Shown piece after piece: positions 29,091 to 53,616 of a stretch of DNA of 61,678 bases; position 1 is the first letter of the stretch; each line of letters begins with the position of its first letter. The position numbers and the translations under genes are program-made. The notes under the pieces are model-generated. The model ran no database searches, was not told the origin of the DNA, and worked only from the letters and a program-made list of their open reading frames with translations. The stretch is from a virus: IMG/VR virus record IMGVR_UViG_3300029713_000009, one strand, 5' to 3'.

Positions 29091-29163
29091 TATAAATAAA
29101 AAGAGCCGCGCCCAAAGGATACGACTCCTCCGGGAACGGCTCTTAGGCTCTGAGACAAAAGTA
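29091..29163 (-). promoter_or_regulatory. Promoter-hairpin-U-tract cassette d
   Basis: Minus strand TACTTTTG-TCTC-AGAGCCTAAG-AGAGCCGTTCCC..GGGCGCGGCTCT-TTTTATTTAT, then ATG. Confidence 0.6.
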
Positions 29164-29189
29164 AGTATTATTTTTTTATAATCAAACGG

Positions 29190-31121
29190 TTATGTTATGT
29201 TTTTAAGGAGCAACTCATAATCTACCGTCTGACCTTTCCCGATACGCTCGGTTATATCGGACACGTATCCCACGTACGTCTTACCGGAAAAGGAGCATGA
29301 TATCCGTCCCTTATAGTTACCCGGGAACGGGGATAACCCAATGGTAGACACCTTTATCTTATCGGATCTCAACAACCTATCACTATCTTCTATGGTAATC
29401 CCTCCACGTTCGGATATGCCTTTTATGGATACATCGGCATTGCCCTCCGAGGACGTGAACATCAAACCGCTAGCGGACATACCGACGTATCCCTTGTTGG
29501 CCATCAGCATATTCCTTGGGGAATAGGCGGCGTTGAACATGGTATCGGGGAATAGAACGCCGGTTATGGGATATGATGGCTCAACGATCATTGTACGAGG
29601 GGTTAATCCACCACTTCCAAAGACGGCATCCACAATAAACACGTCATTGTCCGAATCAGTGTCCTTCGTCTCCTCATTCCTCTCAGTCACGAGGAACTCT
29701 ATGCCATAAGGATCGGCACGATAAGGGCTTATCAACTTCAAGACATTGTCCGTGGCCTTTATCCCCGTGCTGAATGAGTTCGTGAAATGAAACTCGTCAC
29801 GCCCGTTTATCTCGTCATATTCCTGTTTGTCGTAACCCACTTCCACGCCGCTATAGACTACCGAACTATCTATCGTATGAGTCATGGAGTTTATCTCCGT
29901 CAATGGCAACGGATCGGTCACGGAATCATAAAAATCGCCTAGAGGCTTAAATATAACCTTTCTGTTGACATCATCTATCTCCCAGTCATAGCCTAACACG
30001 GCCTTGGCGAACTCCGTGAACTTAGAGAATGACGTATGTATCTTTGCGTCCTTGATCCCACGTATGCTCTCAGCCGCCATGATATAGGGGATCGGAATAT
30101 TCCCGGTCTTTATTTCCCCGGTATAATCCTTAAGCCCCATGTTCGCTAATATCTTAGTCAACAGGGTAGAGGTTTTAACAACATCGATAGAAACCGACTC
30201 GCCTTTATCAATGTATGTGACACTGATATCTTTCACGTTAGACACCTCCGCTTTCATCGTGTCCAACGTAGCGGCATCAATAAATAATTTCAAGCGATAT
30301 CCTTGTTTTAACTCTATATCCTTGTCAATTCTAACTTCCTGTTTTTCCCCGATAAAACCTAGACCCGCTATATTCTCTTTACTGATTGTCACGTTATCCT
30401 TGTCTGTCAACCATAGATATAACCCCGGAGATACAGCATCCGGGGCTGATAACGGGGTTATATCAAAATTCAATACTAATCTAACCGTGATATTCGTTAA
30501 CGACTCCACGAATGGCAATATGCTTTCTGAGGCTTCATGGTACGTGCCGATATCATATTGTACCAATCTACCGGGAATCGGGAAATTAACGTCATTGTAA
30601 ACCATAGGGAACTCATGGTTTCCGAAATATTCGATAGGATATACACCGGTTTCTGTCTGTTCGTCCGTAGGATTGACGCTCCAAGACACCCTATTATTCA
30701 AGTACATCCTTTCATATGTCATTTTCACCTGTGGCATGTCGCTTACCGCTATGTCAAAAGTCTGCGATTTCTGGGAGTTGATAATGGAATAGGTATCATC
30801 ATCGATCGCACTCAAGGTAAGCGTATGCCCATCGTCACTATAGCTCATAAAGTCCAAAGAACAACGATACGCCTCTTTGTACGTAAGATCGTTAATTTGC
30901 CGATATATCACTATCTTTGCGGAAGATTCAATATACTTGGATAGGTATAAATCCGTCAAAAGATCGTAAGCTCCTTTTACGAACTCGAACTTCTTGGCAA
31001 ACTTACGATATATCCCACCAAAATCCTTTCGAGTAAAAGACAACTCGATATCATCCCAATTCTTTAGATCATTGGTTATATCCGTCTCCTTACTGTCTAT
31101 TATCAAAGAAATCTTTATCAT
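29190..31121 (-). CDS. Large tail protein (distal tail / baseplate, by position)
   Basis: 643-aa ORF; first structural gene after the island that follows the tape measure. Confidence 0.55.
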   Translation of the reverse strand: MIKISLIIDSKETDITNDLKNWDDIELSFTRKDFGGIYRKFAKKFEFVKGAYDLLTDLYLSKYIESSAKIVIYRQINDLTYKEAYRCSLDFMSYSDDGHTLTLSAIDDDTYSIINSQKSQTFDIAVSDMPQVKMTYERMYLNNRVSWSVNPTDEQTETGVYPIEYFGNHEFPMVYNDVNFPIPGRLVQYDIGTYHEASESILPFVESLTNITVRLVLNFDITPLSAPDAVSPGLYLWLTDKDNVTISKENIAGLGFIGEKQEVRIDKDIELKQGYRLKLFIDAATLDTMKAEVSNVKDISVTYIDKGESVSIDVVKTSTLLTKILANMGLKDYTGEIKTGNIPIPYIMAAESIRGIKDAKIHTSFSKFTEFAKAVLGYDWEIDDVNRKVIFKPLGDFYDSVTDPLPLTEINSMTHTIDSSVVYSGVEVGYDKQEYDEINGRDEFHFTNSFSTGIKATDNVLKLISPYRADPYGIEFLVTERNEETKDTDSDNDVFIVDAVFGSGGLTPRTMIVEPSYPITGVLFPDTMFNAAYSPRNMLMANKGYVGMSASGLMFTSSEGNADVSIKGISERGGITIEDSDRLLRSDKIKVSTIGLSPFPGNYKGRISCSFSGKTYVGYVSDITERIGKGQTVDYELLLKNIT

Positions 31122-31196
31122 AAGCGTATAAATAACAAGAGCCGTCCGAGGACAAATACGTCTCCGGTACGGCTCTTTGGCTCTGTCACAAAGATA
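31122..31196 (-). promoter_or_regulatory. Promoter-hairpin-U-tract cassette e
   Basis: Minus strand TATCTTTG-TGAC-AGAGCCAAAG-AGAGCCGTACCGGAGAC-GTATTT-GTCCTCGGACGGCTCT-TGTTATTTAT, then ATG 31121. Confidence 0.6.
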
Positions 31197-31218
31197 ATGA
31201 CTATTAAGATAATATCAA

Positions 31219-31521
31219 CTACTTGATCGTCTTATATTTCTCAATCACCCGCAAGAAATCCCTCACGCATGACACGGCCCTCATCTTGTCCATGATATAC
31301 CCGTCCTCGTAATTACCCTCGCAACTCAAATTGATAAGCGTATCTATCATATCGTCCATATCCTTAGAGAACAGGCAAGTGGACATACTCTTTATCTCTC
31401 TCATCATTTCCGGGGTTATGGTCAAGTTCCCTATTACCAACTCATGCGCATGATCAACCTTGATCTCGTTACCGTCGGCTTTCACGACGATGCTTTTAAT
31501 CTCATTCTCTTTCATATTCAA
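31219..31521 (-). CDS. Hypothetical protein
   Basis: 100-aa ORF. Confidence 0.5.
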   Translation of the reverse strand: MNMKENEIKSIVVKADGNEIKVDHAHELVIGNLTITPEMMREIKSMSTCLFSKDMDDMIDTLINLSCEGNYEDGYIMDKMRAVSCVRDFLRVIEKYKTIK

Positions 31522-31619
31522 TCAATCTTTTAATATTTCACAATTATTTTCAAGTCACAAAATGTTAAAGTATTGGCCGTACGCCTTTATATCGTACCTC
31601 AATAATATATGTGTATCAA

Positions 31620-32501
31620 TTAGTTTCTGTCTGATCTCTCGATCAATGGAAGAATGCCGTTTCGTTTTAGCTCCTCATATAAGAACAAGCGTCCTTTCTG
31701 AGTCCATTCGGTATTAAGGCTCACGTCCGGGCTGCCGTTGGAATGAGTGTAGTTGTGAGTGGCACTATGGACATAGCCCTTACCTAAATACTCCCCGTAC
31801 AATATCCATTGCCCGTTGACCTTTCGTTGTATGCGGAGATCACGCAACAAGGCGTTGAATCTTATGGCTGTCATTCCATAATCCTGCGCTATCTGGGTGA
31901 CAAGAACGGTCTTCTTGCTCTGGAGGATAAAACGGGCATACTCGCTTTGATGCTGTAGTTCCACGTTCTCCGCTCTCAACTCCGTTATCTCCTCATCCTT
32001 TTGCTCTAGCCTCTTCTGCTGCTCCTCTATTCGCATCTGTTGCTGTGCGGCTAACATCAGTGCTTCCCCGTAGGATTGAGGCACTGGGTATTGGTGTTGA
32101 ATGTGGTAACTTCCTGTTTTGCGAATGGTTGGTAGAACATCTTTTGTAACCCAATTTTTATAAGATTTAGCGTCTGGTCTTTTGCTTGATAGAATTAAGG
32201 CATAAAGGCCGCTTTCATTAACGTAAGTCATTGATTGCAATCCTCCTTTTGTAAGGGTGTCACGTTTCGTTACATCCTCTATATCGACATGATCTTGTAC
32301 CGCTTTTCTTCCATTTGAGTAACCGAGTTGATTACATACATCAGATGCGCAGAAAAGCGGATTCCCGTTTTCGTCTGTTATAACACGGATATCCCCAAAC
32401 AATGGAGAGTTGAATACTTGAACTTCGCTCGTTTCGTTAGCGTACGCTATTTTTACGGTACTATTATTCCCGTTCAAATAGATTTCATTTGGTTGTAGCA
32501 T
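31620..32501 (-). CDS. Bro-N / KilAC-type antirepressor-like protein
   Basis: Bro-N pattern ..[29 protein letters not shown].. and C-terminal ..[22 protein letters not shown].. Confidence 0.75.
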
Positions 32502-32777
32502 GAAATGAAATTATTTGATATTAAATGAAAAAGCAGGCAAATATCCAAGTCTGCTACAACCTACCATTGCCATTGGGCGATGATACACGGATATTGCCTG
32601 CTTATATATTTTTATATAAGTTCCCTTATGGGCATAAAAAATCCCACTGGCTTTATTAATAGTAAGTTGTAGCACCACAAAGGTGAGAACTATTTTCAAC
32701 ATATGCAAATCAAAAATCATATTTTTATCAATTTATTTAGTATTCAATTTTTTTGTAATTTTGAACGCTTCATATTC

Positions 32778-32825
32778 TTAAAAAATATCCCCGTTAGCGG
32801 CTCAGTCACTTCCGCTTTCGGGGAT
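32778..32825 (-). terminator. Intrinsic terminator
   Basis: Minus strand ATCCCCGAAAGCGG-AAGTGACTGAG-CCGCTAACGGGGAT followed by ATTTTTT. Confidence 0.7.
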
Positions 32826-32925
32826 TTACCTTGACTGATTGTAGCGGTCTGGGAATCGAACCCCGGCAAGGCCATTCTTCTAATCCCTTAACCACCTACT
32901 TCCGATCCTCTCCCCATCGTTCGAG

Positions 32926-33186
32926 TTATCCCGCAAGCCTTACGCAAGTCATGTCGCTTATCACGCTCATAAACCTATCGTAGGTCTTTTTATTCCATTC
33001 CTTGTGATCCGGCATCCAGTCATTGAATATCTCCATGTAGACCACCTCGTGAGACCTGTCTTGTACGGTGACGCATAAACCGCCCGTCTCCGGCATTACG
33101 CCTACGTTTATATGTACCGGTTTCTTTCCGATCATACACTCCAACGCAATCCTTTGTACGTTCTTCAATACCTCTATCGTTTCCAT
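32926..33186 (-). CDS. Hypothetical protein
   Basis: 86-aa ORF. Confidence 0.5.
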   Translation of the reverse strand: METIEVLKNVQRIALECMIGKKPVHINVGVMPETGGLCVTVQDRSHEVVYMEIFNDWMPDHKEWNKKTYDRFMSVISDMTCVRLAG

Positions 33187-33212
33187 ATCCTTATATTATT
33201 AATGTATAGTTA

Positions 33213-33476
33213 TCAATCACCCGAATAAACCCTGTTACCGTAAAGGCTAGCCATACCGACATGAGATAAGACAACATGCTTGCGATACTCGATGCGTCTA
33301 GCTTCTTCCTCTGCCAATCTCTTGGCCTTGGCCTCATTATTTTTTATCTCTATCTTGGCATTATCCCATGCTATAGAAAGGCACTTGCCAAAAGACCAAG
33401 AGAATTTTCGGTAAAGTCTGAATAATCTCCATGCGTCTTTCATGATCTCACTCTTGTTATATTTCTGTGTTGCCAT
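33213..33476 (-). CDS. Hypothetical protein
   Basis: 87-aa ORF; divergent from the XRE gene. Confidence 0.5.
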   Translation of the reverse strand: MATQKYNKSEIMKDAWRLFRLYRKFSWSFGKCLSIAWDNAKIEIKNNEAKAKRLAEEEARRIEYRKHVVLSHVGMASLYGNRVYSGD

Positions 33477-33502
33477 TGTACTGTTGTTTTATTTTGATGA
33501 TG

Positions 33503-33626
33503 CAAATATAATGCAATACTTTATATGCAACAATGATCAAATAAAGAATTACATTGCATTTAACACTATTTAGTAATGTTATTCTTTATACAATAGCTGC
33601 AAATAAAAAGAATCGCATTATATTTG
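33503..33626. promoter_or_regulatory. Divergent promoter pair with shared GCATTATATTTGC element
   Basis: TATATTTG on the - strand at 33503-33510 and on the + strand at 33619-33626; several ATTGCA/TGCAAT repeats between them. Confidence 0.5.
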
Positions 33627-33653
33627 CGGTGTAATCATATAAAGTATTGGCTT

Positions 33654-33920
33654 ATGGAAAATAGAATTAAAGACATTCTTTCAGAAAAAGGATTGACAGC
33701 TAAAGAATTATCATCTGTTATAGGTTTGTCAAGTGTAAGTTTGTATAATATCATCAATGGAAAACAGGAAGCATCAGCAAATACACTGAATGCGATTGCC
33801 ACAGCCTTAAACGTTCCTTTTTGGCAATTGTTTGTTTCCCCTTCCGAAGTGCAAAAAGAGATTGATGGTGGGTATAAGTGCCCTAATTGCGGACATCCAT
33901 TGAAGATAAAGGTGGAATGA
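33654..33920 (+). CDS. XRE-family HTH regulator with C-terminal zinc ribbon
   Basis: ..LTAKELSSVIGLSSVSLYNIINGKQEAS.. plus CPNCGH; ATG 33654 preferred over the track start 33624. Confidence 0.7.
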   Translation: MENRIKDILSEKGLTAKELSSVIGLSSVSLYNIINGKQEASANTLNAIATALNVPFWQLFVSPSEVQKEIDGGYKCPNCGHPLKIKVE

Positions 33921-34014
33921 TGTTATCTTCAATGATCTCAAAATAAAAATCATGAAAGTTTGTTTTCTGCATACAATGCACTACCTTTGCGATACAATAT
34001 AATACAGAAGTAAT

Positions 34015-34257
34015 ATGGAAGCAGTAATAAGAAAACAAACCTCGTTCCGTTTACGTGAAGACTTGTTGCAAGTCTTGCAGGAGCAAGCCAAGAAAGCGAA
34101 CAGGAGTTTGAATAATTTTGTAGAGAGCACCTTGATGGACGCTGTATACTCCGAGCCAAACGAGGAAACGATAGCGGCTATAAGGGAAGCACGCACGACC
34201 AAGAATAAAGAAACGTTCGACAGCGTGGATAGCTTGATGGAGGAATTAATGAAGTGA
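34015..34257 (+). CDS. RHH / RelB-DinJ-like antitoxin
   Basis: ..TSFRLREDLLQVLQEQAKKANRSLNNFVESTL..; ATGA-type overlap with the toxin gene. Confidence 0.65.
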   Translation: MEAVIRKQTSFRLREDLLQVLQEQAKKANRSLNNFVESTLMDAVYSEPNEETIAAIREARTTKNKETFDSVDSLMEELMK

Positions 34258-34532
34258 AAAAGAAATTACACCCAACAAGCCAGTTTAAGAAAGATTTCAA
34301 ACGTATTCAGAAATTCCCCAAAAAAATCGCAGCTTTTGAATATATCGCAAATCTACTTATAAATGACCATCCGATTCCACAAGAATACAAACCTCACATG
34401 TTGAAAGGTGAGTATAAAGGGTGTATGGAATGCCATATAGAAGGAGATTTTCTTCTTATTTGGATTGACGGAGAAATAATCGACTTGCTTAGAATTGGTA
34501 GTCATTCCGAGTTGTTCGGGAAAAAGAGGTAG
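34254..34532 (+). CDS. yafQ: YafQ/RelE-family mRNA interferase toxin
   Basis: ..FKKDFKR....HMLKGEYKGCMECHIEGDFLLIW..L.RIGSHSELF matches the YafQ pattern. Confidence 0.75.
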   Translation: MKKKLHPTSQFKKDFKRIQKFPKKIAAFEYIANLLINDHPIPQEYKPHMLKGEYKGCMECHIEGDFLLIWIDGEIIDLLRIGSHSELFGKKR

Positions 34533-34656
34533 ACAAGGTTTGTACTACTTAAATTAAGAAATATGTTATCGAACATGTAATTTCCCCCTATACCATTTTC
34601 TTTTGTTAACATTATTATCTACCTTTGTCACATCATTAATTAAACTAAATCAAGTC

Positions 34657-35178
34657 ATGAAGAAAATATTGTTTGCTATAATTTGTATAGCTTTAATGGT
34701 ATGCTCTTGTTCGAAGGACGATCCTTTAAATCCAATAGATACTAATTTCCCTACAGAAGGAGAATACGGTATTATCTCAGTGGTAAACAATAATCATGAA
34801 GTTCAATACGACGGTCTTGCAGGAGCGTTAATATTGGAAGATCTTATCGTGCTAATGGCAAATAAAAAAGAAGATAAGGCCATAAGGCTAGGTTTTATAG
34901 GAAAAATGTCTAATGACTCTATTATAAATAATCTCACAGGGGAATATCTTGGCAGTTTTGATAAGAATAAGAAATCCTTGATTATAAATTATATAGACTC
35001 CAAAAAAGATCTATATATCATTGAACTTAAAAAGGATTTATATAAAAAAATGAACGGGGAAAAGACTAATCAGACATGTGTCAAAATAGGATGTAAGAAT
35101 AACACAGATAAAGGCAGTTTGTTTTGCGGCAATCATCATGGCAGTTATGACTTTCAAATACAAATTCCGGGATTATAA
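34657..35178 (+). CDS. Lipoprotein, unknown function
   Basis: MKKILFAIICIALMVCSC signal/lipobox; Cys/His cluster at the C-terminus. Confidence 0.6.
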   Translation: MKKILFAIICIALMVCSCSKDDPLNPIDTNFPTEGEYGIISVVNNNHEVQYDGLAGALILEDLIVLMANKKEDKAIRLGFIGKMSNDSIINNLTGEYLGSFDKNKKSLIINYIDSKKDLYIIELKKDLYKKMNGEKTNQTCVKIGCKNNTDKGSLFCGNHHGSYDFQIQIPGL

Positions 35179-35200
35179 TTTATTAAATTTATAATATCAA

Positions 35201-35644
35201 ATGAAGAAAACGTTTTTTTTTACTTTAATTTCTATTTTAATCAGTTCTTGTACAACTGTTAAATATTCAGAATATGGATATTCGCTAGATTATTCAAGTT
35301 ATACATCACAAGGTTTTTTCTTAACTGAGGCACCTTCTGTAAGTTTTAATTATGAACCTATAGGGTCTGTGATAGGAGTCTCTATTTCGGGATATGACAA
35401 AAACAAGTCTGAAAAAGAATCATACACAAAGACTCTTTCAGATGGAAGTAAAATTTATAATCCAAATTTTGGAAAAAATCAAACAAATTATATTTCAGCA
35501 AACTATGAAGGCGCATTGTCCCAATTAGTAAATGAAAGTAAAAAAATTGGAGCAAATGGAATTATAGGATTGAAATTCAATACTTCTATTATTGAAAACG
35601 GAAGATTAGAGATTAGGGCTTATGGAATGGCAATAAAAAAATAA
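35201..35644 (+). CDS. Lipoprotein with YbjQ (UPF0145)-like C-terminal region
   Basis: MKKTFFFTLISILISSC lipobox; ..GANGIIGLKFN....IRAYGMAIKK. Confidence 0.5.
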   Translation: MKKTFFFTLISILISSCTTVKYSEYGYSLDYSSYTSQGFFLTEAPSVSFNYEPIGSVIGVSISGYDKNKSEKESYTKTLSDGSKIYNPNFGKNQTNYISANYEGALSQLVNESKKIGANGIIGLKFNTSIIENGRLEIRAYGMAIKK

Positions 35645-35651
35645 CACCATC

Positions 35652-35692
35652 AAATCCCCTCCACCCAAAAGGCTCTGGAGGGGATTTTTATG
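35652..35692 (+). terminator. Intrinsic terminator
   Basis: AAATCCCCTCCA-CCCAAAAGGCTC-TGGAGGGGATTT then TTAT. Confidence 0.7.
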
Positions 35693-36045
35693 AGATTGCC
35701 ACATTTGTTGGCTAAGCAGTGTTTTTAAACAGACCTATTAGCCTAATAAAAAAGCCATACATTATTAACAATCAAAGATTTACCATCATATTTAATATTT
35801 GTTAGTTTTTTTAGCTAAAAAAATTTTGTTTGTTATCCAGTTTATCTCATCTTTGTGTCGAAAACAACAAAGATGAATGAATATGGGCACAGTCAAAAAC
35901 AGTAAGGACATGCGGCCCAAAGATGTTAATAGCAAAATTGTGACCGCAGCTTCAGAAAAGAAGGATACCCAAGTAAAGTTCAGATCCCTTACGTCTAAAG
36001 AGTTACTTGATAGAAGAATTGACATTTATCCTTATATGATTTGAA

Positions 36046-36564
36046 ATGAGTTTTTATTACCCTTATAGGTTTGTCCAGAATTTCGAAGGAAAGTCTGGAC
36101 ATCTTTTATCTAAAAGACTATATTCATTTAAATCTACCAAATCTAATCTTACTTATTGGGTCTGGGTGGAATTATATGATTATAATGTTTATGCTATAAA
36201 ATTCCATTTAAAAAATCATAGACACAGTAAAAGAAAGTATAATATACTATCTAGCACATTTGAGCCTAGAACGATAATACATACATGTATAAACATAATG
36301 CTTGACATATACCATCAAGATGATCATGCATCCTTTGGATTTATAGGCTCTAATTTGGACGAAGAGGGAATTGATAATACCAAAAGATTCCGTTTTTATA
36401 GCAAGATTATGGCAACCAATTTTTCTGATAAATATTTTCTACATACAGAACTAAAAGATAAAAGCGCATACTTAATGGTTAATAAAATCGAATTAGAGAA
36501 CAATCCTAATTTGATAAATGACATCCAAGATGCTTTTACAGAGCAATATGAATATTTCGATTAA
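36046..36564 (+). CDS. Hypothetical protein (orphan, A+T-rich region)
   Basis: 172-aa ORF; no motif recognised. Confidence 0.5.
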   Translation: MSFYYPYRFVQNFEGKSGHLLSKRLYSFKSTKSNLTYWVWVELYDYNVYAIKFHLKNHRHSKRKYNILSSTFEPRTIIHTCINIMLDIYHQDDHASFGFIGSNLDEEGIDNTKRFRFYSKIMATNFSDKYFLHTELKDKSAYLMVNKIELENNPNLINDIQDAFTEQYEYFD

Positions 36565-36654
36565 ACATATATCCCCTTGCTGTCTCACGACATGAGGGGG
36601 CTTATGAAAACTAAATCAAATCATGTCTATATTTTGTTTGAGCAACCATAATAA

Positions 36655-37395
36655 TCAAGCAACCCCTTTCTCTCTGATCATATTGGAGATAATATTGTAG
36701 ATATACTCAATAAAACGATGCTTCTCAGCGATATCCAAATTAGACTCTCCGTTTTTCTTCTTATAGCTACGAATAGATATATGATATAGATAGTACAATT
36801 GATCGTATATCTTGCGCCAAACATCCTGTTGTTTCACATTATGGGCGGAAGAGTATCTATTAACCATCTGTCTGATCTTATCTCTTAAACTCATTTCCGG
36901 TATCTTTTCCGTTGAAACAGGAATAGCCAAAAGGAGTTTTCCATTTTCTTCTCGTTCTTGTTCTATCGCTTCTATTCGTTTTTCCACATTGGATATCCTG
37001 TTCTCATATTCCAAGTTGATGTTAGCTTGCATGGCAAACATCTGTGCGGATGAAAGAGGTTTGCTTTGCTCTTTCAACGCTTTCTCCATTTCTTCGAAAG
37101 CGTCATAAAAATCATTCTTAAACCTTAGAGCCTTAATCCCGTTATATCCCATAACAAGGATAGAGAATCCTTTTCTATTCATAATGTATACAGGATTACT
37201 TTTCCCGGTAGAATCCTCATAAGTATCTATAACAAAGGCTAAACTCATTTTTGAGTTTAGTTCTTTATCCTCTGTATTAAGTAGTTTTTCTATGTCACGA
37301 ATAACATTGGCATGTCTTTTCCCAAACTTCTCTGCCACTAGCAAGCTATTAGTAACAACTTGCCCATTATTGCCTTTAAATACTAAACTATCCAT
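36655..37395 (-). CDS. Rha-family phage regulatory protein
   Basis: ..VVTNSLLVAEKFGKRHANVIRDIEKLL.. matches the Phage_pRha pattern. Confidence 0.75.
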   Translation of the reverse strand: MDSLVFKGNNGQVVTNSLLVAEKFGKRHANVIRDIEKLLNTEDKELNSKMSLAFVIDTYEDSTGKSNPVYIMNRKGFSILVMGYNGIKALRFKNDFYDAFEEMEKALKEQSKPLSSAQMFAMQANINLEYENRISNVEKRIEAIEQEREENGKLLLAIPVSTEKIPEMSLRDKIRQMVNRYSSAHNVKQQDVWRKIYDQLYYLYHISIRSYKKKNGESNLDIAEKHRFIEYIYNIISNMIREKGVA

Positions 37396-37426
37396 ATTAT
37401 TAAGTTTTTTAGCTATTAAAAATATT

Positions 37427-37759
37427 CTATATTGCTTGATTAGAATGTTCCCCTACAATTCCCTTCTTTTCTCTCCATTCGTCAGTCATGCATAGGGTGA
37501 ATGCACATAAATCAAATCCTTTTTTAATATAAGATGAGAAATCTACAAATACAAAGTATGGCATATAAGTAATACCATTTTCCTTAGATACAAAATCCTT
37601 AAACATACTTTGCTCCAGATATTCATCTATATCTGAATCGTAATCAGAAGAACCATTAATGCTGCGCAAATAACTATTTGCATTAAAGAATCCGTCACTT
37701 GTCCGCTGGGCAACATTAAAATCACCCATTTTCCGGATCATCTCTTGATTCGTCTTCAT
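37427..37759 (-). CDS. Hypothetical protein, weak KilA-N-like N-terminus
   Basis: ..FNVAQRTSDGFFNANSYL.. Confidence 0.4.
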   Translation of the reverse strand: MKTNQEMIRKMGDFNVAQRTSDGFFNANSYLRSINGSSDYDSDIDEYLEQSMFKDFVSKENGITYMPYFVFVDFSSYIKKGFDLCAFTLCMTDEWREKKGIVGEHSNQAI

Positions 37760-37775
37760 GAGCCTATTTTATTTA

Positions 37776-38543
37776 TTAACAAGCTTCCTTATTTCCTAAG
37801 AACTTATTCACGAAGTAAACTTGCCCTTTTCCGGTGACCTTCGGCGTGATAGTAGTATGTAACACCCCGTTATTACCAGATCTTACGCCTTTCTTCAACT
37901 CGAACAAGCCTTGCTCCACGTATTGCTGGTTAGGGATATTGTATCTCTCACCATGCTTTCCGAGATATCCGTTGTCACGCATCCATGCGAACAACCTTTT
38001 CTCCCCAATAGAATATCCGTTTTGAGCGATCAGCTTGGCGAGCTCACCGATCAGGCAGGAACTGTTCGCTGATTGAACGGCCTTCGTGAAAGCCACGGCG
38101 GGAGCGGCCTCAGTTACTTTCCGCTCGGCCTCGATACGCTTTTGTTGTTCCTCTTTAAGGTTTGTGGCCAACTGGATCAAGAAATCGGGCGAGGTCAAGG
38201 CTTTCTCCAATGTGTCGTTTGTCATATACGCTCCATGTTTACGGATGGAAGGGAGAACCTCTCCGCATACCCAGTCTTGGAATGGTTCGGCTTGCGGCTT
38301 GTCGGATCGCATGATTACCTTGTAGAGATTCTTTTCATTGACAAAATTCATTTGCTGTTCTCTACCGATTGAATCGGTGACCCCAATCCGAATGGGGGCA
38401 TCCGTCAGTCTTGATTGTACAGCGTCTACACGTAATCCTAAAATTTTGCAAACATCCGCAAGGCAAAATAAAGGGTTCTCACTTGTCCCGGCTACTCTCA
38501 CTTCACCGAAACGATCGTTCTCAAAAATTTTAATTGCTTCCAT
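37776..38543 (-). CDS. Bro-N / KilAC (ANT) antirepressor-like protein
   Basis: ..FGEVRVAGTSENPLFCLADVCKILGL.. and ..IGELAKLIAQNGYSIGEKRLFAWMRDNGYL.. Confidence 0.8.
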   Translation of the reverse strand: MEAIKIFENDRFGEVRVAGTSENPLFCLADVCKILGLRVDAVQSRLTDAPIRIGVTDSIGREQQMNFVNEKNLYKVIMRSDKPQAEPFQDWVCGEVLPSIRKHGAYMTNDTLEKALTSPDFLIQLATNLKEEQQKRIEAERKVTEAAPAVAFTKAVQSANSSCLIGELAKLIAQNGYSIGEKRLFAWMRDNGYLGKHGERYNIPNQQYVEQGLFELKKGVRSGNNGVLHTTITPKVTGKGQVYFVNKFLGNKEAC

Positions 38544-38744
38544 ATCTTAAAATTTTAATTGTTCAAAATATTTTCTCCCGCAATTTTAGCCATAAGATCA
38601 AAACGACTTTGTTATTTTGATTACTTCGGCACCTCTTAATGAAAAAGCCTCCCCGACACGAGCCACAACACATCGTATCAAGGAGGCTGTTAGCGACCGC
38701 TGTCGCCCAAAATCTTCCTAGCCTGTTGTGGTAGGCTGACCAGT

Positions 38745-38833
38745 AAAAACAAAAAGAGCCATACCCCATAGACGTGACTCTATCGGGTATGGCTCTAAGG
38801 CTCTACTGTCTTCTTGTATGTCCAGCAAATATA
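38745..38833 (-). promoter_or_regulatory. Promoter-hairpin-U-tract cassette a
   Basis: Minus strand TATATTTG-21 nt-AGAGCCTTAG-AGAGCCATACCCGATAGA-GTCACG-TCTATGGGGTATGGCTCT-TTTTGTTTTT. Confidence 0.6.
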
Positions 38834-38858
38834 ATAAAAGGATTCGGTATATCAAAAA

Positions 38859-42861: not shown

Positions 42862-42879
42862 AAAATTAGCTTTAATCAT

Positions 42880-42969
42880 AAACAAAAAGAGCCACACCCC
42901 ATAGACGTGACTCTATCGGGTATGGCTCTTAGGCTCTAAATTATCTGTTTTATATTATCCCCAAATATA
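42880..42969 (-). promoter_or_regulatory. Promoter-hairpin-U-tract cassette b
   Basis: TATATTTG-24 nt-AGAGCCTAAG-hairpin-TTTTTGTTTATG; 54/56 identical to cassette a. Confidence 0.6.
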
Positions 42970-43003
42970 GGAATAATAAACTATCATGCATCTATTTAAG
43001 GAT

Positions 43004-43035
43004 AAAAAAACGACCCGAACACAAATTCGGATCGT
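43004..43035 (-). terminator. Intrinsic terminator ending the fibre-2 module
   Basis: Minus strand ACGATCCGAA-TTTGTG-TTCGGGTCGT followed by TTTTTTT. Confidence 0.65.
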
Positions 43036-43062
43036 CTCCTTCACTAAAGACGAACAAAGAAA

Positions 43063-43233: not shown

Positions 43234-43323
43234 AAGCTTTCATTTTAAAGTTAACATCACAATGTTACGAAATCATATGACAAAACACAAGAATCCTAGG
43301 ATGTTTGACAACATTGTCATACA

Positions 43324-43431: not shown

Positions 43432-43442
43432 ATGAGAATTAA

Positions 43443-44432: not shown

Positions 44433-44446
44433 ATTTTTACTTTTAA

Positions 44447-47890: not shown

Positions 47891-47913
47891 ATCTTATTGT
47901 CTTTAATAATATC

Positions 47914-48114
47914 TCATAGATAATGAATATACTCAACGATCTTTCCCTTTGATTCTATAGCGTTCATAGGCTCGAAGGCAAACGTGCCATCCATTTTACG
48001 GATAAGCACGTAAATGCGTTTATCGGAAGCGGCCATCTTGATAGCCAGCCTCCTTATGTTCTCGTATGTGGCCATCGCCCTGTTCTGCGAGGCGCAATTG
48101 CACGGCTTTATCAT
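47914..48114 (-). CDS. Hypothetical protein
   Basis: 66-aa ORF; ATGA overlap with the upstream gene. Confidence 0.5.
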   Translation of the reverse strand: MIKPCNCASQNRAMATYENIRRLAIKMAASDKRIYVLIRKMDGTFAFEPMNAIESKGKIVEYIHYL

Positions 48115-48659: not shown

Positions 48660-48816
48660 GGTTCCTCTCCATTATATCATAAGCGTCACATAGTATCCTC
48701 CTTCGATCCGCCATTCCCCGGTCAAGGAAGAAAGATCCCTCGTGAGCCTTCACGAAAGCCTTCCTTCCCATCCCGAGGCAAGCCTCATCATTGAACGATA
48801 CCCCGTTTATGACCAT
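48556..48816 (-). CDS. Small hypothetical protein
   Basis: 86-aa ORF; its last ~35 codons overlap the next gene out of frame and look like low-complexity read-through. Confidence 0.3.
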   Translation of the reverse strand: MVINGVSFNDEACLGMGRKAFVKAHEGSFFLDRGMADRRRILCDAYDIMERNHGDDSGSGERREDAGEELLAGGYEQLEGERGIDP

Positions 48817-49655
48817 TGCTCTATACCTTTAACGTCCTCGGCGTATAGCTCGGATGGCCTCTTGAGCGCGGGAGTACCGGAGGACGGGGTAAGAGACAAC
48901 GTGCCGTCATCGGGATTATACGTGGCGGCTGTCACGTTATTCCACACGGAGGAGGAACCTAATAGCGTACCGTACATCTCTGTCAAGTCAAAACCTCCAT
49001 AATGCTCCACGACCTTGTACTTATTCTCGCCTGTAGCCAATTTCTTGACATCCACCCAGACCAACCCCTTCGCCTCGTCCAAGATATCGATATCGCTGGT
49101 GAAAGATATGGCGTTCATCCAAGCTTTCTCAACGTCCTTGTAAACAAGGTTGATCGTAAGCGAGGCGTTCTCTCCGGAACTCTTGAACCTCTGCCCGCCC
49201 GGATAAACGGCACCGAGCTCATATCCCCTGAAATCACCTTCCGTATCGGTCTTCTCGCCATATACGACATTATTCTTGTCGATGAAGATCACCCTCATGC
49301 TCTCGTTCTTGAGCTTCATGAGATTGGTTCGCAAGCCCTCGTCATAATCGTTCATCGTGTAAGTCTCGACAAGCTCGCTATAACCCGTGATCTTGGACGA
49401 GCCATAACCGGTAGCGGATGTCTGGGCCTCGCCTCCGGAAGTGGCGTACTCAGCGATCGTCGAGATCGGATAGACACGGTTCGGACGGTCGGCGTGGGCG
49501 TACTCTCCCAGCTTCGTGTCAAAATCGGATATCTTGAACGTCATACCTACCGGAGTGAGTATGATCGCCTTGATATAGTCGGGAACGAACGGACACTTGC
49601 TCGTGCCGGTATTGAAAATCTCGGAACCGCAGTCCCTGAACATTTTTACTGCCAT
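48807..49655 (-). CDS. Major tail protein (by position and size)
   Basis: 282-aa ORF following the connector genes. Confidence 0.45.
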   Translation of the reverse strand: MAVKMFRDCGSEIFNTGTSKCPFVPDYIKAIILTPVGMTFKISDFDTKLGEYAHADRPNRVYPISTIAEYATSGGEAQTSATGYGSSKITGYSELVETYTMNDYDEGLRTNLMKLKNESMRVIFIDKNNVVYGEKTDTEGDFRGYELGAVYPGGQRFKSSGENASLTINLVYKDVEKAWMNAISFTSDIDILDEAKGLVWVDVKKLATGENKYKVVEHYGGFDLTEMYGTLLGSSSVWNNVTAATYNPDDGTLSLTPSSGTPALKRPSELYAEDVKGIEQWS

Positions 49656-49657
49656 AA

Positions 49658-50170
49658 TTATCTACATGTTATATTTTTTACATTTAATCTTAAATCCTTA
49701 ATATCAATAGCGTCTATGCGATCGTCGAACTCGCTTTTCCCCTCGCCATACACGCCAGCCCTTCCATACCTGAAATTATCGGTCTTCACATGGGATACTA
49801 TCGCCCCGGGGCCTATATCAAACTTGCGATCGTTGGATATCCTCCTTATAAGGCTGTCATAAACCGGATACAACGTAGCCTTGAAGGACTTCTCCAATCG
49901 CTCCTCATTGGTATAATTCCCCAACGTATTCACGGCTATTATCAAGGAAAGGCTCACGGACGTTAAGGAAGGGTTGGACTTGTCCTCGTCGAACGGGGAA
50001 TATAACCCTATCATAGGATATTTCCTTCCCGCCGTTACGGGTGCCTTCCCCATGGCGGAAAGCGTCTTGGCCATATATTGCCAATCACCGAATTGGTAAT
50101 TGACCATATACCCAACGTCTTTTGAAACGCCAGCGACGATATCCCTGAATATATCCACCAAGACATTCAT
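49658..50170 (-). CDS. Head-tail joining / tail completion protein (by position)
   Basis: 170-aa ORF. Confidence 0.4.
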   Translation of the reverse strand: MNVLVDIFRDIVAGVSKDVGYMVNYQFGDWQYMAKTLSAMGKAPVTAGRKYPMIGLYSPFDEDKSNPSLTSVSLSLIIAVNTLGNYTNEERLEKSFKATLYPVYDSLIRRISNDRKFDIGPGAIVSHVKTDNFRYGRAGVYGEGKSEFDDRIDAIDIKDLRLNVKNITCR

Positions 50171-50667
50171 ATATTCATCTCATTTATATGGGTCAATATA
50201 TTCCTGTCAATATCCATGTCCTCCTTGAAAGACTCCCTTATGCGATCCGATATCCCGATGTTGATATCCACCATATTATTCCAAGCTTGGGTCATCATCC
50301 TTGAGGTATGCGCCAATATCCGCCTCACGTCCACGTCATCGGACGTGGAGGATACGGATATTAGCGTCTCGTTTCTCTGGTAATGAAAATAGACATACAT
50401 AGCCATGGGAGACCTATCCGATCTCAATATCCCTAGGATATAATCAAACATGTCGTTTCCCTTCCTGCCATTATCGGCGTAATCGACGAATGAGTCATAA
50501 TATCCTCCCATGAGCGAGACGAGGTACTCGTCCCCGTAGGTCTCGATATACCATACCACGTTCTCCGATATGGCATTGGAAGCCTCATTGGAGAATCCCC
50601 CGTCCTCCGGTATCACGAGTCCCTGTATCCTAAGGTCTCCCTTGAAGTACGCATTGTCTATTATCAT
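50167..50667 (-). CDS. Head-tail connector protein (by position)
   Basis: 166-aa ORF. Confidence 0.4.
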   Translation of the reverse strand: MIIDNAYFKGDLRIQGLVIPEDGGFSNEASNAISENVVWYIETYGDEYLVSLMGGYYDSFVDYADNGRKGNDMFDYILGILRSDRSPMAMYVYFHYQRNETLISVSSTSDDVDVRRILAHTSRMMTQAWNNMVDINIGISDRIRESFKEDMDIDRNILTHINEMNI

Positions 50668-50669
50668 CG

Positions 50670-50867
50670 CTATTTATCTTTATCAAGTGACATTTTCGAG
50701 TCCCCGAAGACGGATGTCTTAGTATCCGTGTCCGGGATTCTCTTTCTTGTCCCAACCGGGGTCTTTGAGGATATATCGATCATGCCAAGCTCCTTTCGTA
50801 TGGAATTCTCCTGAATGACCTTGTCGACCTCCATCTCCTCACCCGTTATAATTATAGAAACCCTCAT
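50670..50867 (-). CDS. Small hypothetical protein after the capsid gene
   Basis: 65-aa version (MRVSIIITGEEM..) of ORF 50670-50939, starting after the capsid stop. Confidence 0.4.
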   Translation of the reverse strand: MRVSIIITGEEMEVDKVIQENSIRKELGMIDISSKTPVGTRKRIPDTDTKTSVFGDSKMSLDKDK

Positions 50868-50878
50868 GTCATTATGTA

Positions 50879-52549
50879 TTAAGAGGATTTCTTGATAGCG
50901 GTCAATACGTCGGATAACTTGCCATAGGCGAACGCCCACGGGTTGTATACCGGCATGATAACCTCCTCGTCCACGATCACCGCCGTCTGGTTTTTCAATC
51001 GGCTCTCGATATCATCGGCGAACTCGATATTGATAGAGGTATAATCCACCAATGAGGCCCCGTTAACCATATCCCCGACGAAATAATACCCCGGCATGAT
51101 ACAAGTGGTCTCGACAACGGGTCTTCCGGCCACGTACTTCACGCCGTTCACCAACGTCACGAGATTCAAGTCCCGCCCCGACGTGTCCTTCAAGGTCTCG
51201 ATCTCAAACAAGGTGGATGGGTTCATGGCGATCATATTCGGGGTATACTCAGCGTACGTCATGACACCGAAGATAGCCTTGACAGCGTCCCCTAGGTTCG
51301 GGGATGCGACGGTGTTGAAGAAATTATTCTTAACCTCGAAGGTAGCGGCGGTGAATACGCCGGAAGCCGTGAAAGCCACCTCTACCATGATCTCCCGATC
51401 GTTCATCTTATGGATATCGAAAGTTCCGTTCAGGTCCGTGAATGTGGTTACGCCCTCGATCTTGATCTTCTGGCCGTCAACGATCTTGTCCTGCGGGTTG
51501 GTAAACTCCACGATAGTGGCTTTTCCGCCATTGTAGCCTCTCGCTCCCTTGATAGATCCGGCCTCTCCGCTGACAACCGCGTCGGTTATGATATCGGATA
51601 CGCATTTAACGCCATCGTATTTGGTGATACCCTTCAGGTTATCCCCCGTTCCATCGCCGAACATGATCTGGAAATCCTCGGCCATCCTCACCCAAGAGGA
51701 TAAGCGATTGATCAACCATGAGCGGACATATACCCTAGACTTGAGCAATCTCTTGGACAAATAAAGGAAGGTACCGACACGCTTAACCTCCGAGCTCTCC
51801 TCCTTTAACTTGAAGGATGATTGGGATAACCGCCCGTTCTCGGACACGAAAGTGGCGTTACGATCCAAGTCGTAGATCAACTGCCATGTCAACATCGGGA
51901 AGGCGGGATCACCCTGATCGACGCTCATGAGATTACGGAAATTGATCTTTTTCTCGCTTACCTGCGTAACGACCCTGTTTTGCTGCTGACTGATCAAGAT
52001 ATTGCCCGTATAACTATCCGTCATACTGACCACGTCCTTCAAATCCAAATGGAAATTCCCGGAGGACTTCGTCTTACCATCTACATATTGCTTGAATTTC
52101 TCAGAGTCAAGGAACTCATTGATACTTTTCTCAAGAGGGCTATCCACCCCCAAGGTGATGCCACGCCCCTTCATTTGCTCAATCTCCTTGCCCATGGACT
52201 TGATGATATCACGAATCTCCGTGACTTCCTTATTGTTATTACCGGAACCTAGGGATTTAAGCTTCTCGCTAATCTCGGACATCGTCTCCTCGTACTCCTT
52301 CCTGTCTATGACATTAGATCCGTAATCCTCCAGACACTTGTTGACCATCTTCTCGATAGTCCCAAGCGTTTGTTTCTCCTCGTCACTCAACTCACTCTCC
52401 TTCTTGGCGAAACCGGAGAAGGACAATACCGGCGCAACCGCCAAGGCATAGGCCGGATCGCCTACGCATGCGATAACGGCAAAAACCACCAAGGTCAACG
52501 CCATGATAGCGAGACCTCCTAAATTCTCATAAAAACCTTTCTTCAACAT
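50879..52549 (-). CDS. Major capsid protein, HK97 fold, with N-terminal delta-like region and an inserted domain
   Basis: Position after the prohead protease; ..FRNLMSVDQGD...W......A.FVSENG.. capsid-like core; coiled-coil N-terminus. Confidence 0.7.
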   Translation of the reverse strand: MLKKGFYENLGGLAIMALTLVVFAVIACVGDPAYALAVAPVLSFSGFAKKESELSDEEKQTLGTIEKMVNKCLEDYGSNVIDRKEYEETMSEISEKLKSLGSGNNNKEVTEIRDIIKSMGKEIEQMKGRGITLGVDSPLEKSINEFLDSEKFKQYVDGKTKSSGNFHLDLKDVVSMTDSYTGNILISQQQNRVVTQVSEKKINFRNLMSVDQGDPAFPMLTWQLIYDLDRNATFVSENGRLSQSSFKLKEESSEVKRVGTFLYLSKRLLKSRVYVRSWLINRLSSWVRMAEDFQIMFGDGTGDNLKGITKYDGVKCVSDIITDAVVSGEAGSIKGARGYNGGKATIVEFTNPQDKIVDGQKIKIEGVTTFTDLNGTFDIHKMNDREIMVEVAFTASGVFTAATFEVKNNFFNTVASPNLGDAVKAIFGVMTYAEYTPNMIAMNPSTLFEIETLKDTSGRDLNLVTLVNGVKYVAGRPVVETTCIMPGYYFVGDMVNGASLVDYTSINIEFADDIESRLKNQTAVIVDEEVIMPVYNPWAFAYGKLSDVLTAIKKSS

Positions 52550-52560
52550 AAATAAATTAA

Positions 52561-53517
52561 TTAATTGTTATTAATAAGATCACCTAGAGACCCTAAAGTG
52601 CATCTAGCGGCTTTATGTTTCTCTATCTGAGTGGAGTCTTCCGGCTCAGATATAAGGGTGTTGCTTCTATATATTCTGGAATAACATTTAGGGCAGCGGA
52701 CATAAGAGGCGAAATCATCAACGGATTTCTTGGAGTTGATTATCTCCAAGATACGGTCTTGTAACTCCGGCTTGATCTTTTCCATCTCCTGATATACCAC
52801 ATCCTCCGTTATCCATCGTGAATAGTCACCGACGGCATCGATCACTTGGCTCTCCAACGTGTGTTCCGGTACTGACCCATAATCGAAAGCCAGCCCGCAA
52901 TGAGGGCACTGTACTATATTAGATCCGATCAACGCTTTCTCTATGATAGATATGTTAGCCTCAAGAGCCTTGAGCTTATCTCCGCTATATCTCTTATTTA
53001 AAGCGTCACGCATCATATTTATATGATCTCTCAAGTCACTACCCCTCAATTCCTTTATATCCATCAAGAATGTCTGAGGATTAGCCCCCCAATGGGTCAG
53101 CGTGCTATACTCGCCCAAGAACCACTCCTTAACGATAGCCGGGTTATTGGAATCCCGCTTCACGGCCCTGACGCCCACGGAATGCTCCAAGGTCTTGCCA
53201 TGATCCCTGTATAGCTTGTAATCCTCCAGCGTCTCTACGCCTATCTGCTTCTTTAGATTGATCTGCCCGGTCATGACCAGATTGCCATCCTCCTCCACTC
53301 CCTCTATAGGGCAGCCAAGAAGCTTGGTCTTGTCATGGTTGAGAAACCACTTGCACCTGTTGAAATTCTCTTGGAGCGTCTTGGAGAAAGAACCGGGAGA
53401 CGATATATCGCCGTCGCTGTCCTTTATCCCGATACCATTAACGGCCACCTTGACTATTCCTTTCTCATCCACGTCTGTGGACTTGGTCTTAAATAATATG
53501 CTTCTATACGGTTCCAT
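52561..53517 (-). CDS. HK97-family prohead protease with C-terminal double zinc ribbon
   Basis: ..VNGIGIKDSDGDISSPGSFSKTL....WFLNHD..KLLG.. ; CPHC..(x63)..CPKC; the track start 53541 lies in the hairpin. Confidence 0.7.
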   Translation of the reverse strand: MEPYRSILFKTKSTDVDEKGIVKVAVNGIGIKDSDGDISSPGSFSKTLQENFNRCKWFLNHDKTKLLGCPIEGVEEDGNLVMTGQINLKKQIGVETLEDYKLYRDHGKTLEHSVGVRAVKRDSNNPAIVKEWFLGEYSTLTHWGANPQTFLMDIKELRGSDLRDHINMMRDALNKRYSGDKLKALEANISIIEKALIGSNIVQCPHCGLAFDYGSVPEHTLESQVIDAVGDYSRWITEDVVYQEMEKIKPELQDRILEIINSKKSVDDFASYVRCPKCYSRIYRSNTLISEPEDSTQIEKHKAARCTLGSLGDLINNN

Positions 53518-53523
53518 GTCGGT

Positions 53524-53616
53524 ATAAATAAAAAGAGCCATACCCCGCAGGATATGACTCCCGCCGGGTATGGCTCTTAGGCTCTAATTTCTTTTTTGTT
53601 ATGTCCTACAAATATA
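53524..53616 (-). promoter_or_regulatory. Promoter-hairpin-U-tract cassette c
   Basis: TATATTTG-24 nt-AGAGCCTAAG-AGAGCCATACCCGGCGGGA-GTCATA-TCCTGCGGGGTATGGCTCT-TTTTATTTAT. Confidence 0.6.

Follow-up and report, generated by a model that had tools for sequence, protein, structure and literature searches.

In the antitermination systems of the ribonucleic antiterminator (RAT), ANTAR and HutP types (BglG/SacY/LicT, AmiR/EutV), a site in the leader RNA overlaps the 5′ half of a terminator and every controlled terminator has a site of its own; in HutP and TRAP, short sequence repeats serve as the binding units. The lambda PR′-tR′/Q system combines a constitutive-looking promoter, a short leader and a terminator placed before the late genes, and its regulator comes from an upstream unit. 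For late-gene control in temperate phages of the Bacteroidales, we know of essentially no description. Here we analyze a viral DNA of 61,678 nucleotides (nt) from a Bacteroidales prophage, IMG/VR record IMGVR_UViG_3300029713_000009 (hereinafter the window, meaning this whole stretch, to which the cassette coordinates refer), in which five minus-strand cassettes, each consisting of a predicted promoter, two AGAGCC repeats and a terminator-like hairpin, adjoin the late-gene modules. We propose, with a probability of about one half, that these cassettes are sites of site-specific antitermination via a zinc-ribbon protein whose targets are the GAGCC repeats of the nascent RNA. The pairing of such a zinc ribbon with GAGCC repeats is newly recognized; the kind of regulation itself is known.

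The resemblance to the RAT, ANTAR and HutP types extends to all three features, given that the site overlaps the 5′ half of the terminator in all sequence classes of the element described below, that the binding units would be short repeats, and that each controlled terminator carries its own site. There is, however, no homology: the candidate regulator is a zinc ribbon of 45–55 amino acids (aa) without a sensing domain, it is encoded by mobile elements, it would have up to five targets per phage, and in Bacteroidota these targets have promoters of their own. No CAT, ANTAR or HutP domain was found in the open reading frames (ORFs) of the window that were scanned. With lambda PR′-tR′/Q, the cassettes share the order of promoter, short leader and terminator, the provision of the regulator by an upstream unit and the expectation of a short RNA by-product (compare 6S RNA and StxS). 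Unlike in lambda, there is neither a Q homologue nor a DNA element for Q binding between the promoter hexamers, and the recognition element lies in the transcript, overlaps the terminator and is repeated for each module, whereas Q depends on one processive loading. Among about 50 window ORFs (38 compared with Pfam, the rest with PHROGs), no Q-like, NusG-like, AlpA-type, sigma, ANTAR or CAT domains were detected. Moreover, a Q-type site embedded in the promoter is at odds with the position of the conserved element, which follows the −7 box at either of two distances. A preliminary description of this DNA had likened the layout to lambda-type antitermination or attenuation; the notion of a promoter and terminator leader that needs a factor is supported by the conserved boxes, the covariation, the U-tract and the requirement for read-through, but the specific Q mechanism is not, given that the ORFs scanned yielded no Q-like domain and that the layout is site-specific.

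The five cassettes, together with an ordinary terminator next to one of them, are as follows, in the direction of transcription:

53524..53639, minus strand: cassette between the portal and prohead protease genes; −33 TTTG at 53639-53636, −7 box TATATTTG at 53616-53609, AGAGCC-TA-AGAGCC at 53585-53572, hairpin 53577-53534, U-tract 53533-53524, likely protease ATG at 53520; fold −38.7 kcal/mol, z −7.6; covariance model score 74.8 bits.
43004..43035, minus strand: ordinary intrinsic terminator without GAGCC repeats, which ends the head module just upstream of the next cassette.
42880..42969, minus strand: cassette before a 204-aa gene and the tape-measure gene; −7 box TATATTTG at 42969-42962, repeats 42937-42924, hairpin 42929-42888, U-tract 42887-42880, ATG at 42879; 71.1 bits.
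38745..38833, minus strand: cassette after the tape-measure gene; −7 box TATATTTG at 38833-38826, AGAGCC-TT-AGAGCC at 38804-38791, hairpin 38796-38755, U-tract 38754-38745, with a Bro-N/ANT gene about 200 nt downstream; 69.3 bits.
31122..31218, minus strand: cassette before the 643-aa tail gene; −33 TTG at about 31213-31211, −7 box TATCTTTG at 31196-31189, AGAGCC-AA-AGAGCC at 31184-31171 (4 nt after the box), hairpin 31176-31138, a weaker U-tract 31137-31125, ATG at 31121; 62 bits.
29084..29163, minus strand: cassette before the 287-aa tail gene; −7 box TACTTTTG at 29163-29156, AGAGCC-TA-AGAGCC at 29151-29138 (4 nt after the box), hairpin 29143-29102, U-tract 29101-29091, ATG at 29083; 63.9 bits.

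The pattern AGAGCCWWAGAGCC (AGAGCC-WW-AGAGCC) occurs exactly five times in the window, in every case on the minus strand and at the five places picked out in the preliminary description, which had, however, read the spacer two letters too long, as AGAGCC-WWAG-AGAGCC. When up to two mismatches are allowed, six matches are observed, a number that none of 100 shuffled sequences reached, and for the repeats followed by GGCTCTT after a spacer of 20–50 nt, 0.02 chance occurrences are expected in the window. The aligned cassettes run from the −7 box through a gap and the two hexamers to a hairpin that is based on the second hexamer and GGCUCU and is followed by a U-rich run. A covariance model based on a diverse set of family members recovered only these five cassettes when the window was scanned, with 62–75 bits on the minus strand as against 16–25 bits on the plus strand.

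Promoters of Bacteroides have the consensus TTTG at −33 and TAnnTTTG at −7. All five −7 boxes fit TAnnTTTG (TATATTTG three times, TATCTTTG and TACTTTTG once each), a string that occurs by chance about once per 1.5 kb on the minus strand of the window; at a distance of 19–20 nt upstream, four of the five have TTTG or TTG, and the cassette at 42880-42969 has GATG. The sequences thus match a Bacteroides sigma-A promoter, with its −33 TTTG some 19–21 nt before the −7 element, and promoter activity may be inferred from them. A promoter in the cassette at 42880-42969 would indeed be needed, because the ordinary terminator at 43004-43035, noted earlier and found to be present, lies directly upstream. 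The gap between the −7 box and the first AGAGCC falls into two classes, 4 nt (boxes at 31196 and 29163) and 21–24 nt (53616, 42969 and 38833).

The stems of the five cassettes comprise 13–18 bp, covary, and contain one internal mismatch or bulge each, and the predicted RNA folds, at −26.6 to −38.7 kcal/mol, are far more stable than those of shuffled sequences (z = −4.5 to −7.6). The boxes, the two gap classes and the loops are as first described. In the cassettes at 42880-42969 and 38745-38833, the near-identity reported earlier amounts to a difference at two core positions; in the others, the stem is maintained via compensatory changes. With a G+C-rich-based hairpin, an adjoining U-tract and the placement of both on the transcribed strand, the sequences have the features of intrinsic terminators, the tract being weaker at 31122-31196. 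Behind four of the five cassettes, a start codon (53520, 42879, 31121 and 29083) follows 9–18 nt past the stem, in line with the proximity claimed before, and behind the remaining one the distance to the Bro-N/ANT gene is about 200 nt. The mechanically assigned start of the prohead protease ORF, ATG 53541, falls within the 3′ arm of the hairpin; it is plausible that the in-frame ATG 53520, past the U-tract, is the actual start.

The strict pattern was found in at least 117 stretches of IMG/VR and in 72 stretches of GTDB contigs (one genome per species), of which, by our own estimate, about 30 are expected by chance; the GTDB matches in odd taxa fold poorly or have no U-tract. The genuine matches come from Bacteroidales (Bacteroides, Parabacteroides, Muribaculaceae) and from Clostridia (Lachnospiraceae, Oscillospiraceae, Roseburia and others); the element is not specific to Bacteroidales phages. 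Rfam, searched with the window and 14 diverse loci at gathering and permissive thresholds, returned only tRNAs, the best sub-threshold matches being generic hairpins. All sequence classes share a core of 2–6 tandem (A)GAGCC units, 6–8 nt apart, in which the final unit serves as the 5′ foot of a hairpin with GGCUC(U) as its closing 3′ side and a U-tract behind it; the repeat variants include AGAGCC, AGACGC and CCUGAGCC. The element is therefore a real, conserved composite, absent from Rfam and spread over two phyla. The number of GAGCC repeats and of cassettes varies among loci: one locus (L098) has two tandem cassettes before a 1747-aa gene and a third 2.6 kb upstream (6802-6936; 9494-9555), and another (L116, 3300-3407) has six GAGCC repeats after a gene of the zinc-ribbon family discussed below.

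Several observations indicate that the hairpin is transcribed and functional and that its structure is under selection, as far as comparison of sequences can tell. Among 51 diverse copies, double substitutions are found in 10 of the 10 variable pairs, which bears out the earlier suggestion that the stem is kept by compensatory changes, and 87.7% of the paired cells can pair, compared with 69% in shuffles and 33–50% when the partner is slid. The inner stems comprise 143 distinct sequences in which pairing is retained. When a T after the stem is not demanded by the pattern, 118 of 155 unique copies nevertheless have at least five T in the next 8 nt, against an expectation of about 2.3. The motif is co-directional with the coding sequence in 145 of 162 contexts; with this orientation, and with only the stem inverted and its sequence free to vary, the family does not behave as a mobile repeat of the repetitive extragenic palindrome (REP) or miniature inverted-repeat transposable element (MITE) kind. 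The basal AGAGCC(G) helix is often set off from the upper stem by a mismatch or bulge, which fits a stem base that melts separately.

The second component emerges from the Clostridia loci, where the ORF directly upstream of the motif encodes a zinc ribbon of 45–70 aa that matches the Pfam family Cys_rich_KTR (PF14205; hereinafter KTR) with E-values down to 3e-15; classical members at motif loci score 46–56 bits against a Pfam cut-off of 25.5. Such PF14205 proteins are encoded directly upstream of the motif in independent phage lineages. Furthermore, in an independent genome scan, a KTR-like ORF was present on the motif strand at 30 of 73 motif matches and on the opposite strand at none, and for 25 of these 30 ORFs the end lies anywhere from 40 nt within the motif to 69 nt ahead of it. 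In the reverse direction, a search that started from the protein led to the motif at phage Cormatin, Tn916 orf6, the phi-m46.1 tet(O) element, MT835490 and two further loci (L118 and L119), and also at P0013, at P0014 and in the P0003 prophage family. In Flavonifractor phage Cormatin, the KTR gene, annotated as 'translational regulator', lies between the replication and packaging genes, and the motif consists of two copies of GCGCCUGAGCC, the second of which is the terminator base. At locus L198 (MT835598, around 450-520), the repeats read AGACGC-AA-AGACGC, and again the second copy is the terminator base; repeat sequence and KTR protein may thus co-vary in specificity. A HMMER search of 1.84 billion representatives gave only 11 matches, as the protein is very short, and two of these entered the protein-to-motif check. 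A family profile retrieved no solved homologue and only generic zinc ribbons from the PDB sequences (DpnI, E 0.0095), and weak sub-threshold Pfam matches were to the Elf1 and TFIIB ribbons. In the literature, we found no function for Cys_rich_KTR or Tn916 orf6 and no paper with the motif string. The notion that the repeats are conserved as code for the KTR 'EP' tail was rejected, the five window copies and many others being non-coding.

The association with one protein family also bears on whether the hairpins could be RNase III-type processing sites, as in the early and late mRNAs of T7, that cut a long late transcript and leave stabilizing hairpins at the ends. Stems of 13–23 bp with an internal mismatch, in paralogous intergenic copies, would suit such a role. 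It would, however, assign no function to the adjoining U-tract, the upstream promoters or the single-stranded repeats, and it would leave the zinc-ribbon linkage unexplained, so that we consider this explanation barely probable.

In Bacteroidota, the motif is nearly always accompanied by a predicted promoter: TAnnTTTG lies 3–25 nt ahead of the first repeat in 48 distinct contexts, of which 46 also show TTG at the −33 spacing. As in the window, the distances from promoter to repeat fall into two classes, 3–9 nt and 18–25 nt; in the short class, judging from the spacing, the RNA would be expected to start at or slightly before the first repeat. The Clostridia motifs have no such promoter and are preceded by an ORF. 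Across the family, essential genes, such as those for the large terminase subunit, portal, scaffold, major tail and holin proteins, start a few to a few tens of nucleotides past the U-tract, and in four lineages tRNA genes start 8–25 nt past the motif U-tract or stem. Because essential and tRNA genes adjoin the motif so closely that there is no room for another promoter, the hairpin must be passed under some condition. The motifs followed by tRNA genes are found in L020 (1887-1957), L069 (5557-5628), L118 (about 3240-3320) and L119 (about 3260-3340), and L118 and L105 have a second motif after the tRNA; the motif may have a role in tRNA expression or processing.

These contexts are relevant to the simplest alternative, namely that plain terminators stand next to plain promoters, that no dedicated factor is involved, and that the repeats and the sequence similarity are due to common descent or to gene conversion after an intergenic module was duplicated. 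A hairpin with a U-tract is a textbook terminator, two of the cassettes are nearly identical, and leader types have been swapped between positions in related phages, which suggests recombination. Nevertheless, with the promoter upstream of the terminator, transcripts would die after 55–85 nt; the GAGCC repeats are kept across two phyla while the stems (143 of them) diverge completely; the linkage to one protein family is tight and strand-specific; and the ordinary terminators of the same phage lack the repeats. On balance, plain terminators and promoters without a dedicated factor appear improbable.

The swapping is seen in seven related phages (L013, L023, L028, L039, L063, L102 and L104), in which the long leader and stem of the portal/protease type (as at 53524-53616) stand before the homologue of the 287-aa tail gene. 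By comparison with the window cassettes at 53524-53616 and 29091-29163, cassette types have thus been exchanged between positions, and it may be that modules recombine at the cassettes. The first cassette of the P0003 lineage is placed between the genes for the large terminase subunit and the portal protein, rather than between portal and protease; this placement was found in 10 of the 10 places examined.

The KTR family appears to resemble, remotely, the Com protein of phage Mu. Com, a Cys4 zinc finger of 62 aa, binds to a hairpin in RNA beside an inhibitory structure, which it opens (PMC6483171). In hhalign comparisons, Mu Com (query sequence 100% identical to the Mu record) matched the KTR profile with 92.4% probability and a score of 33.1. 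For 150 shuffled versions of Com with the cysteines fixed, scores were 13.9 ± 3.3, peaked at 23.4 and never came up to 33; the zinc ribbons Ogr, YacG and L31 scored 15–21, the probability for Ogr being 4.4%. Against the Bacteroidota subgroup, Com reached only 54%. Weak matches to PHROGs annotated as 'translational regulator' (phrog_6417) had E-values from 4e-5 to 0.03. The apparent parallels with com-mom include a small zinc finger of the Cys4 type, comparable in length and spacing, and a regulator gene that lies directly upstream of, or overlaps, its RNA target. Unlike the target of Com, which is unmasked at a ribosome-binding site, the structure in the cassettes is a terminator hairpin with a U-tract whose neighboring start codons are not sequestered; the RNA target sequence is unrelated, and the targets are multi-copy.

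This resemblance raises the question of Com-like post-transcriptional control, in which the hairpins would be constitutive terminators, insulators or end-protectors, and the protein, bound to GAGCC, would activate (or repress) translation or stabilize the mRNA. Besides the similarity itself and the PHROG matches (the better ones at E 4e-5 to 2e-4), the annotation of the Cormatin homologue, the arrangement of regulator gene and target as in com-mom, and starts so near the stem that the 30S footprint would overlap its 3′ arm are in keeping with such control. The hairpin does not, however, sequester the ribosome-binding site or the start: the start codons, and in Clostridia the Shine-Dalgarno sequences, lie outside it, the latter downstream of the U-tract. 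Moreover, a conserved U-tract right after the stem is a feature of termination rather than of translation, tRNA genes follow the motif in four lineages, and the cassette at 38745-38833 has no gene within 200 nt. We therefore regard control after transcription as unlikely.

The same profile comparison is informative with respect to an element that acts as DNA, with the zinc ribbon bound to duplex GAGCC/GGCTC just past the start site, where it would repress as a roadblock or else activate, or with the cassettes as sites for module recombination. The small phage zinc fingers Ogr and Delta are DNA-binding activators. The P2 Ogr/P4 Delta system is similar in that each of several late operons has a short conserved site through which a small phage zinc finger controls it; the system differs in that Ogr binds DNA upstream of promoters, whereas the sites described here are downstream and fold as RNA. 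Two direct copies and one inverted copy of the hexamer on the DNA, and the location of the cassettes at module boundaries with leaders swapped among relatives, could likewise be read in terms of DNA. Such a reading is at odds with the stem covariation, which implies selection on a single-stranded fold, with an orientation that follows transcription (145 of 162 contexts), with the noise-like score of Ogr against the KTR profile (4.4%, compared with 92% for the RNA-binder Com), and with the variable position relative to promoters. We judge it quite improbable.

In the window, the family is represented by a small gene at the head of the late operon:

57768..57926, minus strand: 52-aa zinc-ribbon ORF (CPxHH ... 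CxxC), a divergent relative of Cys_rich_KTR, Tn916 ORF6 and Com, and the candidate trans factor.
57991..58008, minus strand: two overlapping −7-type boxes, TAATTTTG and TATATTTG, the putative operon-head promoter before the zinc-ribbon gene.

The product, MDFYNNSSQRQQVDVYCPVHHNWIGHYDYGSKGVYYCWCKKCKKEIKIVMGK, was the best match of an ad hoc KTR profile in a six-frame translation of the window, and the stop codon of the ORF and the start codon of the gene for the small terminase subunit overlap in an ATGA. The gene had been named before among several candidate regulators, and by profile comparison it belongs to the zinc-ribbon family whose genes accompany the motif in two phyla. The group formed by the window ORF (A5) aligned with the classical KTR group (A4) with 97.5% probability and an E-value of 8.6e-12 in hhalign, and Bacteroidota sequences at three loci (L105, L049 and L153) bridge the window ORF to the classical KTRs, those of L105 and L049 matching both groups. 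The architecture is shared as well, with CPxC/H, about 20 aa, CKxCK+E and a beta strand. Judging from these comparisons, the 57768-57926 protein is a divergent member of the KTR family. Its close homologues occupy the same position in related prophages. A search for relatives with a 48-aa query yielded only two close ones, and tblastn of the 52-aa protein against INPHARED gave no match. On the other side of the operon head, a DUF6965 gene (58036-58299, plus strand) diverges from the zinc-ribbon/terminase operon, and the same pairing is found in prophages of the P0003 family (L203-L212); the shared intergenic region may hold the late-operon switch.

A number of observations weigh against the proposed role of this protein. 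A Pfam scan of the 52-aa protein gave no match above the gathering threshold, and because it has no Pfam match of its own, its assignment rests on the profile comparison and the bridging sequences. The AlphaFold model, a four-stranded ribbon, has a mediocre predicted local distance difference test (pLDDT) score of 71, and a Foldseek search of the PDB with this model returned nothing below E = 3. The zinc-ribbon gene does not adjoin a cassette in the window, the nearest being 4.2 kb downstream. At 3 of about 13 loci from the protein-first search, there is no obvious GAGCC repeat. Many of the zinc-ribbon ORFs in Clostridia run into the repeats and the 5′ arm, so that ribosome occupancy could contribute. 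The hexamers are fixed in the strict pattern, and their invariance is partly by design; the relaxed-pattern matches still retain GAGCC. Finally, regulation could run in the opposite direction, or translation or stability could be what the protein affects.

Under site-specific antitermination, as we envisage it, a sigma-A type promoter would start an RNA with the two AGAGCC repeats within its first 10–35 nt, and the second repeat, together with GGCUCU, would close a strong hairpin before the U-tract, creating an intrinsic terminator. In the absence of the factor, both local transcripts and those arriving from upstream would end at the hairpin, the former as short RNAs of about 55–85 nt. The 52-aa protein from 57768-57926 would be recruited by the exposed, always single-stranded upstream repeat; on the second repeat, it would keep the basal 6–7 bp open, so that the hairpin falls short of the U-tract and the polymerase enters the late module. 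From the anatomy of the cassettes and their co-occurrence with the protein family, we infer both RNA binding by this protein and an effect in the direction of antitermination. The operon head (genes for the zinc ribbon, the small and large terminase subunits and the portal protein) would be transcribed without crossing a cassette, and each later module would be gated by one cassette and boosted by the promoter of that cassette. Control would be site-specific rather than processive because the recognition site recurs at every terminator. A switch made of RNA only, in which the upstream repeat competes for GGCUCU, was considered and rejected, given that either pairing leaves a helix beside the U-tract.

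If the antitermination were instead processive, the zinc ribbon would be loaded on the polymerase at GAGCC, either as RNA in the manner of lambda N/nut or as DNA in that of Q or AlpA, and would pass later terminators. Zinc ribbons are common as RNA-polymerase-binding modules, as the weak Elf1 and TFIIB matches recall; the cassettes adjoin promoters in Bacteroidota; and the ordinary terminators without repeats inside the late region would be passed as well. For such a system, however, repeats at every cassette that overlap the 5′ arm of the terminator would be superfluous, and both the two classes of promoter-repeat distance and the promoterless repeats that follow ORFs in Clostridia oppose loading coupled to a promoter; in addition, the ORFs scanned show no homology to Q, N, AlpA or NusG. 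Processive loading is in our view rather unlikely.

The same combination occurs in Tn916, which is among the best-studied conjugative transposons. In the accepted model for induction of its transfer, read-through downstream of tet(M) is central. The product of orf6 belongs to the same protein family, PF14205, and its gene is associated with AGAGCC-AGACGC-AA-AGACGC-AGAGCC, a stem and then GGCTCTT. In contrast to the window cassettes, this copy stands alone, has no promoter to itself and lies where two genes converge (orf6/orf9). The 3′ end of orf6, which lies downstream of tet(M), overlaps the repeats and the hairpin, for example at 1640-1720 of locus L122 (Tn916 in phage IPP61), and likewise at L197, L202 and L123, which suggests that orf6 has a role in read-through into the regulatory region. 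No function is described for orf6 in PMC7288454, and canT, the antiterminator published for Tn916, is a separate cis-acting RNA located near orf5 (PMC11658703). We tentatively extend the proposal to the whole family: with a probability of slightly less than one half, the KTR/Tn916-ORF6 zinc ribbon and the GAGCC-repeat terminator form a previously unrecognized two-component antitermination system of gut phages (in Bacteroidota and Bacillota) and Tn916-family transposons, which would gate five late units in the present phage and, in Tn916, control read-through from tet(M) into antisense-orf9 and orf7-orf8.

If site-specific antitermination by the zinc ribbon is correct, it would amount to a concrete late-gene switch made of one 52-aa protein and five cis sites, and it would place a new protein family, evolutionarily tied to Mu Com, among the few sequence-specific RNA-binding antiterminators. 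The analysis also defines an RNA motif outside Rfam with hundreds of copies and strong covariation. Furthermore, the cassette of about 90 nt, which combines a promoter, an operator-like RNA and a terminator, could be a possible orthogonal switch for the engineering of Bacteroides.

Several other features of the window were noted. Between the tape-measure and tail genes, a 7.6-kb accessory block (31219-38833), with a cassette on each side, contains two Bro-N/ANT genes, a Rha gene, an HTH_3 repressor-like gene and a YbjQ-like gene, partly on the plus strand. In a megablast search of the late region against INPHARED, the only match was to the Rha/Ant genes of Bacteroides phage BF1-TP2, at about 95.7% identity, and it lies inside this block. 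In a gap at 32721-32925, the minus strand at 32840-32895 resembles the 3′ half of a tRNA (GGGGTTCGATTCCCAGACCGCTAC); neither ARAGORN nor Rfam made a call there, and the segment may represent what is left of an att site, or a piece of a tRNA, in the accessory block. In the early region, a plus-strand ORF at 9303-9458 encodes a Cys-rich protein of 51 aa with CxxC-x9-CxxC, which was considered as a regulator and rejected, there being no family link. Also on the plus strand of the early region are genes for a fused PD-(D/E)XK nuclease/FtsK-like ATPase (4869-6962), a C5 cytosine methylase (11549-12949), an N6/N4 methylase (12993-13673) and an acyl-carrier-like (PP-binding) protein (13688-13939), the last of which is unusual in a phage.

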